DNA of 64,000 nt, taken from Selenomonadales bacterium. GTDB lineage: Bacteria; Bacillota; UBA994. How positions within the stretch are numbered: the stretch's first letter is position 1; the number at the start of each line of letters is the position of its first letter. A model generated the notes under the pieces. The model saw only the letters and a list, made by a program, of their open reading frames with translations. It did no database searches and was not told the DNA's origin. Below, in pieces: positions 36,675 to 52,442 of the stretch. The stretch covers positions 25,189 to 89,188 of the forward strand of contig JAGXRZ010000053.1 of assembly GCA_018335585.1 (NCBI GenBank). The letters run 5' to 3'. Both the position numbers and the translations under genes were made by a program.

Positions 36675-36739
36675 AATATCCCTGTGCACACAATGTGCAC
36701 AGGGATATTATACTTACTCGGCGAGCGTTTGTCAACGAA
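36675..36739 (-). promoter_or_regulatory. fab operon consensus sigma-A promoter (TTGACA-17-TATAAT) overlapping a 16-3-16 perfect palindrome AATATCCCTGTGCACAcaaTGTGCACAGGGATATT
   Basis: Minus-strand reading: cgTTGACAaacgctcgccgagtaagTATAATatccctgtgcacattgtgtgcacagggatattt, then SD and fabH. The palindrome spans -10 and +1. Confidence 0.65.
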
Positions 36740-36766
36740 GCAAAAAGCTCCGTCCCTTTTGCTTCA
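36737..36766. repeat. 34-bp hairpin repeat copy 1 (AACGAAGCAAAAAGCTCCGTCCCTTTTGCTTCAC)
   Basis: 9-bp stem GAAGCAAAA/TTTTGCTTC with an 11-nt loop. It overlaps the stop codon of the Schlafen-like gene and abuts the fab -35 element. Confidence 0.85.
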
Positions 36767-38200
36767 CTTGGTGACAAAGCGCTGGTAACGGCTGCGAGGT
36801 CTTTCGGGCATCGTGAGGCGAATTTTCCCGGCATCAATTAGGGGCTGCACTAACTTGGACATCGTGTAGTATTGCGAGAATCCGGTAAAGCGGGTCAGCT
36901 CATCCCTCGACCTCGGAATGCTGCAAAACGTCAGTAACGCTGCCACCTGGTCGTGGCTTGCTTCTCTAATCGCCGCATGTAAGTTGTTTCTGAATGTGAC
37001 GACGAACTCACCCCTTTGGGCTGCAAAAAGCGGTGCAGGCAACTTGGCCTGATCACATTCTCTGCGGATTGTCGGGATGCCTGAATATCGATTCTCTGTA
37101 ACGGAAAGAAGTTCCAGTATGTTAGCAAGAGTCGGGTTGCGGGTGTCAGGACGCACCTTGCCAAGAGAATCGATGGAGATGTTCCCATATAGTCCGCCGC
37201 TGTTTGTCACCTCCATGCGGTCGCTATACATGACGATACGCACTGGGACAGATTCGGAGTGGATGCTGTAATCTCGATGCACGAGCGCGTTTAGGATGGC
37301 CTCGCGAACCGCCAAGGGAGGAAACTCTGGTCTGTCAACTCGCTTGCCGTCATCCCCAATGACGGTTGTTAGTCGTCCATTCCTTCGCACGAAGTCCACA
37401 GCAGCCTCTAACATGTCGGGTATAGGGCCCGTGATTCGCTGATTGGCTATGAAACGCTCGCCGGCAGTACCGGTATCCCCCATGCTCGTCCCGGGGACGA
37501 CGACTGCCGTGATGCACAGCTGCGGAAAGTTTGCCTGGGGATAGTGAGACAGCGCCATGAGGCCAGCTAGTGTAGGGGTTCCGTTCACCGTCACGCCCAT
37601 AAGCTCCAAAATGCCCTCATCAGATACGTTGTCGGCAATATTCCTTCGGTCGAGCTTAACTGCCCTTAAGTATCGCTCCACACGAGTGGGGTCAAAAAAT
37701 GACAGTCTTGCACTAACCACCGGCCGTAGGTCGTCACGGATACGTTTTCGAAAGGCGTCGAAGCTGTATATCTCATATTCACTCATCAGATCATTAGACT
37801 CCCCGACGCGAATGTACGATCCCTTGTTCCGGCCGACCCCTCTGTAATAGACTGGACGTTGGTCGGCGTCGACACTTGGTATTTCAGCCGCGACGACATG
37901 GTGCCCGTCTATCGTCGCAATGGTGAACAATGGGCGAACGATGGGCTCCATCTGTTTGCACTGCTCGGTAACCTTCCTCTGCAAGTCGTGCGGATCATAT
38001 ACGCCAACAGCACTAAAGCCCGCGCGCTCATCAAGACCAAACACAATCACCCCACCGTCATCTTGGTTAGAGAATGCGGACAATGTGCCGAACAGGCGAG
38101 TAGGGCAGCCATCACGGGCAGACTTCACCTCGATGCCCTGTGATTCGGTCTTCTGCGCTTGGATTTGATGCACCAAATCGACTAGCTCCTCAACCTGCAT
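36764..38200 (-). CDS. Schlafen/AlbA_2-domain ATPase with a C-terminal HATPase_c_4/wHTH region (the 'RecG-like putative transcriptional regulator' family)
   Basis: MQVEELVDLVHQIQAQKTESQGIEVKSA at ATG ~38200 with SD GGAGGTG; ~478 aa. The ORF-track entry extends to 38254. Confidence 0.6.
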   Translation of the reverse strand: MQVEELVDLVHQIQAQKTESQGIEVKSARDGCPTRLFGTLSAFSNQDDGGVIVFGLDERAGFSAVGVYDPHDLQRKVTEQCKQMEPIVRPLFTIATIDGHHVVAAEIPSVDADQRPVYYRGVGRNKGSYIRVGESNDLMSEYEIYSFDAFRKRIRDDLRPVVSARLSFFDPTRVERYLRAVKLDRRNIADNVSDEGILELMGVTVNGTPTLAGLMALSHYPQANFPQLCITAVVVPGTSMGDTGTAGERFIANQRITGPIPDMLEAAVDFVRRNGRLTTVIGDDGKRVDRPEFPPLAVREAILNALVHRDYSIHSESVPVRIVMYSDRMEVTNSGGLYGNISIDSLGKVRPDTRNPTLANILELLSVTENRYSGIPTIRRECDQAKLPAPLFAAQRGEFVVTFRNNLHAAIREASHDQVAALLTFCSIPRSRDELTRFTGFSQYYTMSKLVQPLIDAGKIRLTMPERPRSRYQRFVTK

Positions 38201-38219
38201 CTTCCCACCTCCTACCACT

Positions 38220-38346
38220 ATTATGACAACAATGCGGCAAAAATACAACAGCAAACGTTATTTTACGCAACAACAGTCCAAATTAACGCAACAACAGCGC
38301 GAAATAACGCAACAACAGGCCAACTTGAACCACATTGTTGCGTTAA
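38220..38346 (-). promoter_or_regulatory. Promoter (TTGTAT-17-CATAAT, TG-extended) preceded by three 21-bp-phased direct repeats TAACGCAACAACAG and one inverted copy
   Basis: -10 at 38220-25 and -35 at 38243-48 on the minus strand. Repeats at 38265-76, 38286-97 and 38307-18; inverted copy at 38333-46. Confidence 0.5.
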
Positions 38347-38360
38347 CTGAGTTTATCAAC

Positions 38361-38390
38361 GAAGCAAAAAGCTCCGTCCCTTTTGCTTCA
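38361..38390. repeat. 34-bp hairpin repeat copy 2
   Basis: aacgaagcaaaaagctccgtcccttttgcttcac, identical to copy 1. Confidence 0.85.
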
Positions 38391-38450
38391 CACCCATTTC
38401 CGAAAAAATGCTCAGTAGCCCTCCGGCGAGGAAACCAAACCAAAGTCCCT

Positions 38451-40235
38451 TCATGCGCACACCTCCGCCACATCACTTTGGCAGAGCACTTTTCCATGCT
38501 CAAATAGGCTGGCGTAATGTCCCTGTCGTGCCAAGAGCTCGGCGTGCGGCCCTGCCTCGACCACGCGCCCTCCATGTATAACGGCGATGCGATCCACGCG
38601 ACTTAAGAGATGCAGGCGATGCGTGACAATAATCTTGGTCGACGGAAGGCGCAATATGCAGTCTGTCACCAACCGCTCCGTTTTCATATCGAGCGCGGCC
38701 GTCGCTTCGTCTAAGAGCAAAACCGCGGCTCCGCGCAAAATGGCTCGCGCCAACGCTATCCGCTGTCGCTGCCCGCCCGATAGGGTACCCCCGCCCTCGC
38801 CTATAATCGTGTCGTAGCCCTGCGGCAGTGCCTTAATAAACTCGTCCGCTCCGGCCTGTGCGGCCGCCGCCCGAATATCTGTCTGCGTGGCGTCAAGATT
38901 GCCTAACCGGATGTTCTCTGCGATTGAGGTCGGCAAGAAGAAGTCATCCTGCGGGACATACGCCATATGCCGGCGCACGCAGGCGATTGACTCGGCGTCT
39001 AAGGCTTGACCGAAGCAAGAGACGACTCCGGCACTCGGTTGCCTAAAGCCAAGCAGGAGCTCCAGTAAGGTGCTTTTGCCCGCGCCGCTCGCCCCCACGA
39101 TGGCTAACGCCTCTCCGGTTCGCACCTTGAGGCTGAGCTCGCGCAACACGTCAGTCGCACCCGTAAACCCAAACGATACCCTATCGAATTCCACTGCGTA
39201 CTCCAGAGCGGCAGGCGGAGGCGGGCAGACCTTAGGCGGTAATGGCTCCACAGGCAGCTCCAGGACTTCCAGTACTCGTTCCGCCGCTTCACTGGCCGCT
39301 TTAATGTTTGCCAAGCTCTGCGCCACTCCCGAGAGCGGCCAGGTCAAGGCATTAAGCAGGTTTAGCAGTACAAAGAGCTGCCCTAAGCTCAGTCTGCCTG
39401 CGATAACGTCAAGCCCGCCTACGCCAAACAGCACGAGAAAAGGCACGACCGAGAACACTGTCATGGCTGCGTGCATCTGGCCCCGCAGCAAGGCGAGCTT
39501 AGCCGCATTGCCTACGGCGCTTTCCTGCAGGGCACTCATCCGTGCAACAAGGTAGTCGCGCATATTGTAGACCTTGGCAATGACTATTCCGGCCACCGTA
39601 TCTTGCGCGAGAACATTCACCTTAGCTATATCGCTTTGCCATAACTTGAGGACCGCACCCATGCGCCCGCCTAGCCAAGATGCGACAAACATCATGAGCG
39701 GCGCCATCGCCACCGTCAGCAATGTAACTTTCCATGACACGAGCAGCATTACCACCAGCGAGGCGACAAAGCCTAAGCTGCCTTGTGCGAGGTTTGGCAG
39801 GTGGCGCGCGAAGGCCGACCGCACGACTTGTGCGTCATTGCTAAGGCGAGAAACATACTCCCCGCTGTGCGTTTGTTCGAGCGCAGGGATGCGAGCCCGG
39901 CCAAGGTGCATGGCCACTTGCGCGCGCAGGCCGTGCATAACGCTCTCCGCGAGTTCTCCGGTAAGCAGTTGCCGCAGTAGCAAAGCAATGTCTCCGCCAA
40001 CCCAAACCAAAACTAACAGCAAAAACGTCTGCCCAAACGCCTCTCTGTCGGCAAGGATGCCTACATCAATAATTGCCCCAAGCTGCCGAGCTAAGAGCAC
40101 CCCCAGCGCCACTTGCAGAGCGATAACCAGCAACGCCCCAAGCGCTGTGATTCTATGCTGCCTGACGTACCCCCATAGTGCTTGCTGCCCTCGCCTTGGT
40201 TCCTTACTTGCTGCCGCCCGAGGTTTCCCCTGCAT
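38451..40235 (-). CDS. Fused TMD-NBD ABC exporter (MsbA/multidrug-type half transporter)
   Basis: Walker A GASGAGKST; signature LSGGQRQRIALARAI; Walker B LLLDEATAALD; six N-terminal TM helices. Confidence 0.85.
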   Translation of the reverse strand: MQGKPRAAASKEPRRGQQALWGYVRQHRITALGALLVIALQVALGVLLARQLGAIIDVGILADREAFGQTFLLLVLVWVGGDIALLLRQLLTGELAESVMHGLRAQVAMHLGRARIPALEQTHSGEYVSRLSNDAQVVRSAFARHLPNLAQGSLGFVASLVVMLLVSWKVTLLTVAMAPLMMFVASWLGGRMGAVLKLWQSDIAKVNVLAQDTVAGIVIAKVYNMRDYLVARMSALQESAVGNAAKLALLRGQMHAAMTVFSVVPFLVLFGVGGLDVIAGRLSLGQLFVLLNLLNALTWPLSGVAQSLANIKAASEAAERVLEVLELPVEPLPPKVCPPPPAALEYAVEFDRVSFGFTGATDVLRELSLKVRTGEALAIVGASGAGKSTLLELLLGFRQPSAGVVSCFGQALDAESIACVRRHMAYVPQDDFFLPTSIAENIRLGNLDATQTDIRAAAAQAGADEFIKALPQGYDTIIGEGGGTLSGGQRQRIALARAILRGAAVLLLDEATAALDMKTERLVTDCILRLPSTKIIVTHRLHLLSRVDRIAVIHGGRVVEAGPHAELLARQGHYASLFEHGKVLCQSDVAEVCA

Positions 40236-40341: not shown

Positions 40342-40371
40342 GAAGCAAAAAGCTCCGTCCCTTTTGCTTCA
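40342..40371. repeat. 34-bp hairpin repeat copy 3
   Basis: agcgaagcaaaaagctccgtcccttttgcttcac, located between the ABC gene and spoIIID. Confidence 0.85.
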
Positions 40372-42246: not shown

Positions 42247-42929
42247 TTGTCGACGATGAGGAGAACATTCGTTCCGGCCTCAGTTATGCCCTCAAGCGTG
42301 AAGGCTTCGAGGTTTTTGCGGCCGACAACGGTTCGGAAGCCGTAAGGCTTGCGCTTTCGGTTGCTCCGGACGTAATTCTGCTTGACCGCATGCTACCGGG
42401 GCTAGACGGTGTAGAAGTATGCCGTCAGATTAGAGCGCAAAGCAGCGTGCCCATCATCATGGTTACGGCGCGCGACAGCGAGCTCGACACGGTAGTCGGT
42501 CTCGAAGTAGGCGCCGACGACTACATAACCAAGCCCTTCTCGCTCAACATTCTGCTGGCGCGCATCAGAGCGGTGTTGCGCCGCGTAGAGGCAAAGACGT
42601 CTCGCGAGTCTGCAACTGAGGTTGGCATCAGCTACGGGCCATTCACCTTGTATCCCGAAAAGTATGTCGCGCTGTGCGAGGGGGTGGACCTAGAACTAAC
42701 CCCTAAGCTGTTCGAGCTGTTTCTCTTGCTGGCTAAGAGCCCGGGTCGCGTATTTACGCGCGATTTTCTCTTGGAGCGAGTCTGGGGCATCGATTATGCC
42801 GGGGAGACCCGTACGGTCGATGTGCACATCACTTGGTTGCGCAAAAAGCTAGAGCAGGACCCCAGCGAGCCGCGCTACCTCCTAACTGTGCGCGGCGTGG
42901 GCTACAAGTTAGCTGAGCTCCATGCCTAA
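42231..42929 (+). CDS. phoP: OmpR-family response regulator (PhoP/PhoB-type), start codon uncertain
   Basis: (R)[15 protein letters not shown] receiver domain and winged helix. There is no in-frame ATG/GTG/TTG between the stop at 42117 and the conserved N-terminus; a strong SD AAGGAGGAG lies 7 nt before ATC 42231. Confidence 0.7.
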
Positions 42930-52412: not shown

Positions 52413-52442
52413 GAAGCAAAAGGGACGGAGCTTTTTGCTTCA
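52413..52442. repeat. 34-bp hairpin repeat copy 4 (inverted orientation, preceded by a partial duplicate)
   Basis: agaagcaaaagggaagcaaaagggacggagctttttgcttcac. Confidence 0.85.

Follow-up and report, generated by a model that had tools for sequence, protein, structure and literature searches.

Which protein reads the regularly spaced repeats that precede a Schlafen gene in a Selenomonadales bacterium (GenBank assembly GCA_018335585.1, contig JAGXRZ010000053.1) is the question raised by this locus. The stretch analysed, i.e. a window of 64,000 nucleotides (64 kb) of that contig, contains a gene for a protein with a Schlafen domain, a GHKL ATPase domain and a C-terminal winged helix-turn-helix (wHTH). 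An earlier note on the sequence had described an array of direct repeats immediately upstream of the predicted promoter of this gene and regarded autoregulation by the downstream wHTH product as plausible. Based on the comparison with homologous loci presented here, the repeats are probably a cognate autoregulatory operator array that is bound cooperatively by the product of the adjacent gene itself.

The repeat array and the adjacent Schlafen protein

The 12-mer ACGCAACAACAG starts at positions 38265, 38286 and 38307 of the forward strand, the spacing being exactly 21 bp when read on both strands. Two copies extend to the 14-mer TAACGCAACAACAG (38284 and 38305), and the third is spelled TTACGCAACAACAG (38263). 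On the strand of the gene, i.e. the minus strand, the unit reads CTGTTGTTGCGT[TA]A, with a spacer of 7 nt after it. Positions 1 to 12 of this 14-bp core are the same in all three window copies, with the proximal copy differing at two positions, and the 7-bp spacers between the direct copies have diverged. An inverted copy (TTGTTGCGTTAA, 38335-38346) lies 16 bp past the third direct copy, bringing the array to four full-core sites. In addition, two degenerate copies overlap the core promoter, i.e. CTGTTGTAT on the -35 and ATTGTTGTCAT on the -10 hexamer; the motif is fused to TATAAT in the same layout at four homologous loci (L005, L007, L022 and L025). The -35 hexamer is weak, matching the consensus at three of six positions, and the promoter is not called by a consensus scan.

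These data agree with the description in the earlier note, which had listed three 21-bp-phased direct repeats, an inverted partial copy about 15 bp further on (in fact a full-core copy), a Shine-Dalgarno sequence, a TG-extended -10 and a -35 with a 17-nt spacer, all of which are found at the positions described. The note had also proposed a motif search as a check: within the window, the exact 12-mer occurs at the three array places only, the 11-mer TTGTTGCGTTA is likewise confined to the array, and looser 12-mer matches outside it (one or two mismatches) number 7 compared with 5.6 expected, i.e. chance level. A 40-fold higher motif density in the upstream region than outside was not used, being inflated by the choice of the motif from inside that region.

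The protein comprises a SLFN_AlbA_2 domain (PF04326, E=2.7e-13, residues 19-139), which 2KYY matches by sequence and by fold, and a HATPase_c_4 domain (PF13749, E=6.7e-23), for which Foldseek returned 3LMM and the GHKL domains of PDK and HK853. Residues E19, E24 and D72 of the nuclease domain and the ATPase N-box E300-x3-N304 are invariant in family alignments; judging by their E-x4-[ED] spacing, the former probably correspond to the published catalytic residues, and the latter shares its E-x3-N spacing with E314/N318 of RzAgo. The wHTH had earlier been placed inside the HATPase_c_4 domain; it is indeed present, but as a separate C-terminal domain following it. In the AlphaFold2 (AF2) model, the C-terminus consists of helices 407-425, 432-439 and 443-456 and strands 460-462 and 475-477, with a predicted local distance difference test (pLDDT) score of 77-88, and the last 76 amino acids match the Fic-like_C wHTH with E=1.7e-5, just short of the Pfam cut-off. 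The structure search returned as closest the uncharacterised 3LMM and 2KYY, then GHKL kinases, and no characterised DNA-binding relative, and PADLOC gave only partial matches, to Schlafen models associated with prokaryotic Argonautes (pAgo).

The architecture is that of pSlfn-HisKinase-HTH, which accounts for 19% of 5,930 prokaryotic Schlafens (PMC13056530) and has also been named 'Schlatpase' with a short C-terminal HTH (bioRxiv 10.64898/2026.05.29.728809). The window protein has the same domain order, i.e. SLFN_AlbA_2, HATPase_c_4 and wHTH, and conserves both the acidic residues and the E-x3-N motif. Bacterial Schlafens were shown to be phage-defence tRNases only in 2025-2026 (PMC13056530; PMC13462974; bioRxiv 10.64898/2026.05.29.728809), and a defence or tRNase activity of the Schlafen-GHKL-HTH class is putative.

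Arrays at homologous loci

Named genomes, metagenomes and public assemblies provided about 100 loci that encode homologues of 44-89% identity, with hosts among the Clostridia, Oscillospiraceae and Erysipelotrichaceae, one Riflebacteria metagenome-assembled genome (MAG) and two MAGs of the archaeal genus Methanomassiliicoccus. At almost every locus the gene is preceded, within 250 bp, by a short-repeat cluster of its own, the motif being common within clades and different between clades. Examples are AGTTGGCAA (L008, L026, L044), AAGTTGCTA (L013), CGATTCT (L014, L015, L048), TTTTAGTGTTGAT with nine copies at 21 bp (L031, L035, L036), TTTTATAAGA (L082-L087), AACTCAAA (L068, L070, L074, L077) and AACATAAGAA (L017, L018). 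Arrays were scored by the most repeated 9-mer (at most one mismatch, both strands) in the 250 bp upstream. Among 80 unique loci, the best 9-mer had on average 4.8 copies compared with 2.75 in shuffles of the same regions, and its count exceeded the maximum of 20 shuffles in 43 of them. For regions of at least 240 bp, the mean was 4.9 copies in 78 test regions and 2.8 in 48 intergenic gaps taken from these loci as controls, with five or more copies in 50% of the test regions versus 4% of the controls (Mann-Whitney p = 5e-14). The arrays comprise 3-9 sites.

Adjacent sites of the same orientation are spaced by 11 bp (30 cases), 20-21 bp (70 cases), 30-32, 41-42, 52 or 61-64 bp, with hardly any values in between, i.e. 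with a period of about 10.4 bp, which is the helical repeat of B-DNA. The 21-bp phasing in the window is therefore a property of the family, with the sites on a single side of the duplex. The period also favours recognition of double-stranded DNA and disfavours a role at the RNA level, in which the repeats would be part of the 5' leader or of a read-through transcript of the upstream ATP-binding cassette (ABC) gene and be bound by the Schlafen domain. Such a role would fit the lack of a strong terminator between the ABC gene and the array and the RNA binding reported for Schlafen domains (PMC13056530); however, the periodicity combined with the use of both orientations is typical of B-DNA recognition, the predicted transcription starts are downstream of most sites and there is only a weak folding signal, which makes an RNA element very unlikely. 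A search of Rfam gave no match for the array, the sole match being a chance microRNA match on a palindrome at fabH. A coding explanation was also rejected, as the open reading frame (ORF) through the repeats is of low complexity and overlaps the ABC gene.

Were the repeats a functionless minisatellite, i.e. the product of slippage duplication of a 21-bp unit, cores and spacers would be conserved equally. In 15 arrays with at least three consecutive sites phased at about 21 bp, identity between copies is 85-96% for the seed-core columns and 34-61% for the spacers; conservation of the seed columns is in part built into the way they were chosen, but equal conservation of the spacers, as expected from whole-unit duplication, is seen only in L097, where six or seven near-identical whole 21-bp units (L097:1130-1360) represent a recent tandem duplication. 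Slippage is also suggested by the comparison of the window with L024 (89% protein identity), as the two arrays differ in length by exactly one 21-bp unit. Nevertheless, in drifted surroundings L024 still has the inverted copy, one of the strong copies and the two weak copies over the promoter, and copy number thus shifts by unit steps with the cores being maintained. The array with nine copies (L031:2260-2430, also L035 and L036) has an alternating 42-bp superstructure and, together with L097, indicates that array size changes fast by unit duplication. Considering that in the window and in most arrays the core alone is conserved and the spacers have diverged, that helical phase is preserved also where copies are inverted or are spaced non-tandemly by 11, 31, 42 and 63 bp, and that arrays recur at the same place in about 80 loci with different motifs, a neutral origin has very little to recommend it. 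Distal placement of a single inverted copy, as seen in the window, was not significant as a rule of the family (9 of 26 arrays versus 5.7 expected, p = 0.09).

The array follows the gene and not its surroundings. Neighbours are almost never common between loci, the 60 upstream neighbours forming 57 clusters and the 63 downstream neighbours 61 clusters; synteny is gone already at 75% identity. Since the flanks are almost never constant and the hosts range across bacterial phyla and an archaeon, the wHTH product of the gene itself is the only trans-acting factor that always accompanies the array. In the archaeal MAGs, where the homologues are 55% identical and one contig measures 275 kb, seven to eight copies of (G/T)CGATTCT with a 52-bp or 41-bp higher-order repeat (L014:5750-5990 and L015:5800-5990) lie upstream of an apparent TATA-like element, suggesting that gene and array were transferred together between domains.

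The same observations bear on the possibility that the repeats serve a host transcription factor unrelated to the Schlafen protein, i.e. a response regulator of the LytTR type or the OmpR/PhoP-type regulator encoded at 42390-42929. LytTR sites are 9-bp direct repeats with a 12-bp spacer, and thus 21-bp phased, just upstream of the -35. The window array shares with those of AgrA, ComE and PlnC/D this classic start-to-start phasing directly upstream of a weak -35; moreover, TGCGTTAAT in the window resembles the PlnC-type TACGTTAAT, without being an exact match to the LytTR consensus [TA][AC][CA]GTTN[AG][TG], and a PhoP/PhoR pair is encoded 4 kb away. In contrast to LytTR sites, the conserved core measures 14 bp and not 9, sites also cover the -35 and -10, and the motif varies with the linked Schlafen gene from host to host. 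No LytTR regulator was found among the ten neighbour genes scanned, 11-bp-phased TTAACA Pho boxes are absent, and the motif occurs nowhere else in the 64 kb, so that no regulon is visible. In addition, the array belongs to a block, bracketed by two copies of a hairpin element, that is absent from the relative L109. This relative shares 97.8% DNA identity with the window over spoIIID and the ABC gene, but has a second ABC gene at the place of the array and the Schlafen gene. The array is therefore part of the incoming block and not host intergenic DNA. As a host factor also leaves clade-specific motifs that follow the gene across unrelated hosts and contexts unexplained, we consider it improbable.

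The earlier note had further offered an iteron set as a reading of the geometry. Phased repeats of about 21-22 bp plus an inverted copy beside the gene of the presumed binder are indeed reminiscent of iteron plasmids (pPS10 RepA, F RepE, R6K pi and RK2 TrfA), the Rep proteins of which bind by winged helices and use inverted or promoter-overlapping copies for autorepression, as proposed here for the window array, and the gene is horizontally mobile. In the replication sense, i.e. as iterons or centromere repeats of a mobile replicon with the adjacent protein as initiator or adaptor, this reading finds no support. Unlike iteron plasmids, the window contains no replicon; DnaA boxes or an unwinding element were not noticed either, although no search was aimed at them. 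The loci are insertions of one gene into a chromosome, with no genes for replication, partition or transfer, and the sites overlap the promoter of the gene itself. The protein has the Schlafen-GHKL-wHTH architecture and is neither a WH1-WH2 Rep nor a ParB/ParR protein, and the family was found in only 6 of 72,556 plasmid records (tblastn), the sole close match being a 2.6-Mb replicon. A function in replication or partition is thus extremely improbable.

The candidate binding protein and the mode of regulation

If the Schlafen protein binds the array by its wHTH, motif and recognition helix would be expected to change together. By eye, helices of the form S-x-[YF]-Y-T-M-S pair with GTTG-type sites, in clades at identity tiers of 54-56%, 60-66% and 71-76% to the window protein, YAIQT with TTTGAGTT, YALRRY with TTCTTA, SRTHTM with TTATCA and YLRRS with CGATTCT. 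In an identity-stratified analysis of moderately close pairs, residues 439-452, comprising the turn and the recognition helix, formed the 14-residue window in which residue change best matched motif change (delta 0.111, next best 0.074), and residues 443-456, i.e. the third helix of the model, ranked second of 465, with none of 300 label permutations reaching the observed value. There is thus moderate support for motif changes that track changes of the wHTH recognition helix. Repeats of their own close to the promoter are also found in remote homologues (25-30% identity), the HTH of which is a different one. Together with the context independence of the arrays and the selection on their cores, one of two covariation tests hence speaks for the autoregulation considered plausible at the outset, and the helically phased arrays of the homologues, again with core selection, for the cooperative array on one DNA face that the earlier note had envisaged.

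The arrays also coincide with predicted promoters. According to heuristic promoter calls, the leader is short and the -10 TG-extended at most loci, 50 of 65 arrays have a strict site that overlaps the region from the predicted -35 to the -10, and sites span about -130 to +10 relative to the predicted starts. We therefore propose the following model, although parts of it are conditional: the wHTH would read the approximately 14-bp core CTGTTGTTGCGTTA, and protomers placed two helical turns (21 bp) apart on one DNA face would touch via the oligomerizing Schlafen-GHKL body. The GHKL domain of the SLFN+GHKL supradomain is known to drive oligomerization (bioRxiv 10.64898/2026.05.29.728809), which gives a basis for cooperative binding. 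The three strong direct sites (centred at about -53, -74 and -95) and the distal inverted site would nucleate cooperative binding, which would then spread to the weaker copies over the -35 and the extended -10 and turn transcription off. The outcome would be tight negative autoregulation of a potentially toxic tRNase, and with promoter, operators and regulator within about 1.6 kb, the cassette would retain its own control on moving between hosts.

Tight negative autoregulation would be sensible in the light of TrlG of Photorhabdus, a distant relative with the same AlbA_2 and HATPase_c_4 domains, the expression of which arrests growth, consistent with a toxic effector in need of tight control (bioRxiv 10.1101/2020.06.02.129163). 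TrlG differs in being part of a temperature-induced three-gene operon for which no repeat array was reported (bioRxiv 10.1101/2020.06.02.129163). The layout is kept in the archaeal hosts, which argues against a mechanism that needs contacts specific to bacterial RNA polymerase.

Several points weigh against this interpretation. Its support is comparative sequence analysis throughout, and the structure model is of moderate quality overall (pLDDT 70). Around one-fifth of the loci have no clear array by the 9-mer criterion, and a search for homologues without a wHTH yielded no clean control set: distant plasmid homologues, considered as such a control, were rejected because they are full length with a different HTH and repeats of their own. 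In a rank partial-correlation scan over all pairs with windows of 12 amino acids, the helix ranked only 8 of 156, behind GHKL windows of low variability. Phylogenetic inertia confounds both covariation tests, the permutation control breaks relatedness, and since gene and array are physically linked, shared descent alone yields some correlation between motif and protein. Finally, the promoter positions at the other loci are heuristic calls, and the combination of a weak -35 with strong sites upstream, at positions typical also of activators, makes the direction of regulation uncertain; the protein may activate at low occupancy.

One homologue ends early. In L045 (gene at about 521-1957), the protein has only 409 amino acids and terminates just after the GHKL domain, tblastn similarity runs to residue 477, and the gene is probably a frameshifted pseudogene. 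The region upstream of it has no array (best 9-mer, two copies), an anecdotal case the direction of which fits a link between wHTH and array.

It is tempting to speculate that the array does more than control transcription. In a reading that partly overlaps with the operator interpretation, it would be a docking scaffold or sensor, i.e. a platform that lines up protomers as an inactive DNA-bound oligomer, from which unbinding during infection, due to DNA damage, competitor DNA, a change of topology or ATP-driven tetramerization, would both derepress the gene and free active tRNase. The number of sites (3-9, with four full-core sites in the window) exceeds the need of simple autorepression, the helical phasing is strict, SLFN-pAgo, which contains the same SLFN+GHKL supradomain, has an inactive filament versus an ATP-driven active tetramer (bioRxiv 10.64898/2026.05.29.728809), and archaeal hosts, the basal transcription machinery of which differs, have the same layout. 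However, the argument is one of analogy, a single chromosomal array holds only a handful of protomers, and ordinary cooperative repressors, too, often have operators with several sites. We therefore regard a scaffold function as a rather unlikely, tentative option. The same low expectation applies to its fullest form, by analogy again, in which the private, co-evolving array would be docking track and operator at once, with release leading to derepression and ATP-driven assembly of the active tRNase, i.e. a DNA-tethered immune switch portable between bacteria and archaea.

Locus setting and related systems

The window comes from the chromosome of a spore-forming Firmicute, with spoIIID, mbl, fabZ, the PhoP/PhoR pair and an ABC exporter upstream of the Schlafen gene and fabH-fabK-fabD-fabG downstream. 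Coordinates of the locus features are given in Table 1.

Table 1. Features of the Schlafen locus (window positions; site centres relative to the inferred transcription start)
Feature	Position	Strand	Basis or remark
Gene for 478-amino-acid Schlafen(AlbA_2)-GHKL(HATPase_c_4)-wHTH protein	36764-38200	-	Domain searches, alignments, structure model
C-terminal wHTH coding region (residues ~405-478)	36767-36988	-	AF2 model, Fic-like_C match
Putative recognition helix and preceding turn (residues 439-456)	36833-36886	-	AF2 model, covariation
Shine-Dalgarno sequence GGAGGTG	38206-38212	-	5 nt before ATG (38198-38200)
Predicted -10, CATAAT	38220-38225	-	Preceded by TG at 38227-38228
Predicted -35, TTGTAT	38243-38248	-	17-nt spacer to -10
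Degenerate copy ATTGTTGTCAT over TG-extended -10	38223-38233	-	Sequence and comparison with L024
Degenerate copy CTGTTGTAT over -35 hexamer TTGTAT	38243-38251	-	Sequence; kept in L024; putative weak site
Strong direct site 3 (promoter-proximal), CTGTTGTTGCGTAA	38263-38276	-	Centre ~-53
Strong direct site 2, CTGTTGTTGCGTTA	38284-38297	-	Centre ~-74
Strong direct site 1 (promoter-distal), CTGTTGTTGCGTTA	38305-38318	-	Centre ~-95
Inverted full-core copy TTGTTGCGTTAA, distal array end	38335-38346	+	Exactly kept in 89%-identical relative L024
Upstream 41-bp repeat copy (holds dispersed 29-nt hairpin)	38351-38391	-	Marks end of L109 homology (38385)
Downstream 41-bp repeat copy	36727-36767	-	40/41 identical; overlaps Schlafen stop codon and fabH promoter -35

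The block with array and gene is bracketed by two copies of a 41-bp repeat. These were considered as attachment sites of a cassette and rejected, as the perfect 29-nt hairpin within them (GAAGCAAAAGGGACGGAGCTTTTTGCTTC) is not specific to the cassette: it is dispersed in four copies over the 64 kb (0 expected), i.e. at 36737-36765(-), 38361-38389(-), 40342-40370(-) and 52413-52441(+), and L109 has retained the one located between spoIIID and the ABC gene. The hairpin is a dispersed intergenic element resembling repetitive extragenic palindromes (REP-like). The two bracketing copies share about 10 additional bases and mark a synteny breakpoint. Homology between the window and L109 stops exactly at the hairpin element (38385), indicating that this is where the window lost a partner ABC gene. 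A 32-amino-acid ORF (MKGLWFGFLAGGLLSIFSEMGVKQKGRSFLLR, 38356-38454, minus strand) is the remaining stump of a second gene for an ABC half-transporter (compared with L109:5680-5749), which in L109 is present as a full gene of 560 amino acids with the same ATGA overlap. On the other side of the Schlafen gene, fabH has a perfect consensus promoter (TTGACA-17-TATAAT, 36707-36735, minus strand), the -35 of which overlaps the end of the 41-bp repeat. Directly after it, a perfect palindrome (ATATCCCTGTGCACA-TTG-TGTGCACAGGGATAT, about 36676-36708, minus strand) covers the likely transcription start and is a probable operator of a fatty-acid-synthesis repressor.

Like pSlfn-HisKinase-HTH/Schlatpase, the family to which the window gene belongs is a single-gene, horizontally mobile unit that sometimes lies beside conflict-system genes. 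In two loci with homologues of 75-76% identity (L022:9703-11952 and L025:3000-3569), an AEP-TOTE gene (PF22548) directly follows the Schlafen gene, and in L022 a DEAD/ResIII helicase gene follows as well, with a tRNA nucleotidyltransferase-like gene nearby. This arrangement resembles an island of conflict-system genes, the products of which may act as partners in that subclade.

Control of a toxic or defence gene by a DNA-binding domain at promoter repeats is likewise found in type II toxin-antitoxin systems, BrxR/CapW-type regulators and RptR (PMC12255303). In contrast to these, the HTH is here fused to the effector, and 3-9 helically phased sites of clade-idiosyncratic sequence take the place of one or two palindromes. 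The Schlafen architecture itself has been classified without a role for its HTH (PMC13056530; bioRxiv 10.64898/2026.05.29.728809). Term searches of these two reports found no mention of upstream repeat arrays, and full-text literature searches found neither a description of repeat arrays preceding Schlafen genes of prokaryotes nor a role of the HTH. Therefore, while self-operator arrays with iteron-like geometry are known, it appears to be a new finding that such arrays are systematically associated, and co-evolve, with the most abundant Schlafen class of bacteria.

For the commonest Schlafen architecture, i.e. Schlafen plus GHKL ATPase plus short HTH, the arrays offer a candidate DNA partner, and 3-9 sites at multiples of 10.5 bp upstream of a COG2865-type gene provide a signature for annotation. 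If the interpretation as an operator array is true, the DNA ligand of the HTH could be read from the genome for thousands of members, so that experiments on binding, specificity swaps and regulation could be designed, and the family would constitute a natural set of orthogonal wHTH/operator pairs of varied specificities. It would also explain how a toxic effector can spread as a single gene among very different hosts while carrying its own control.

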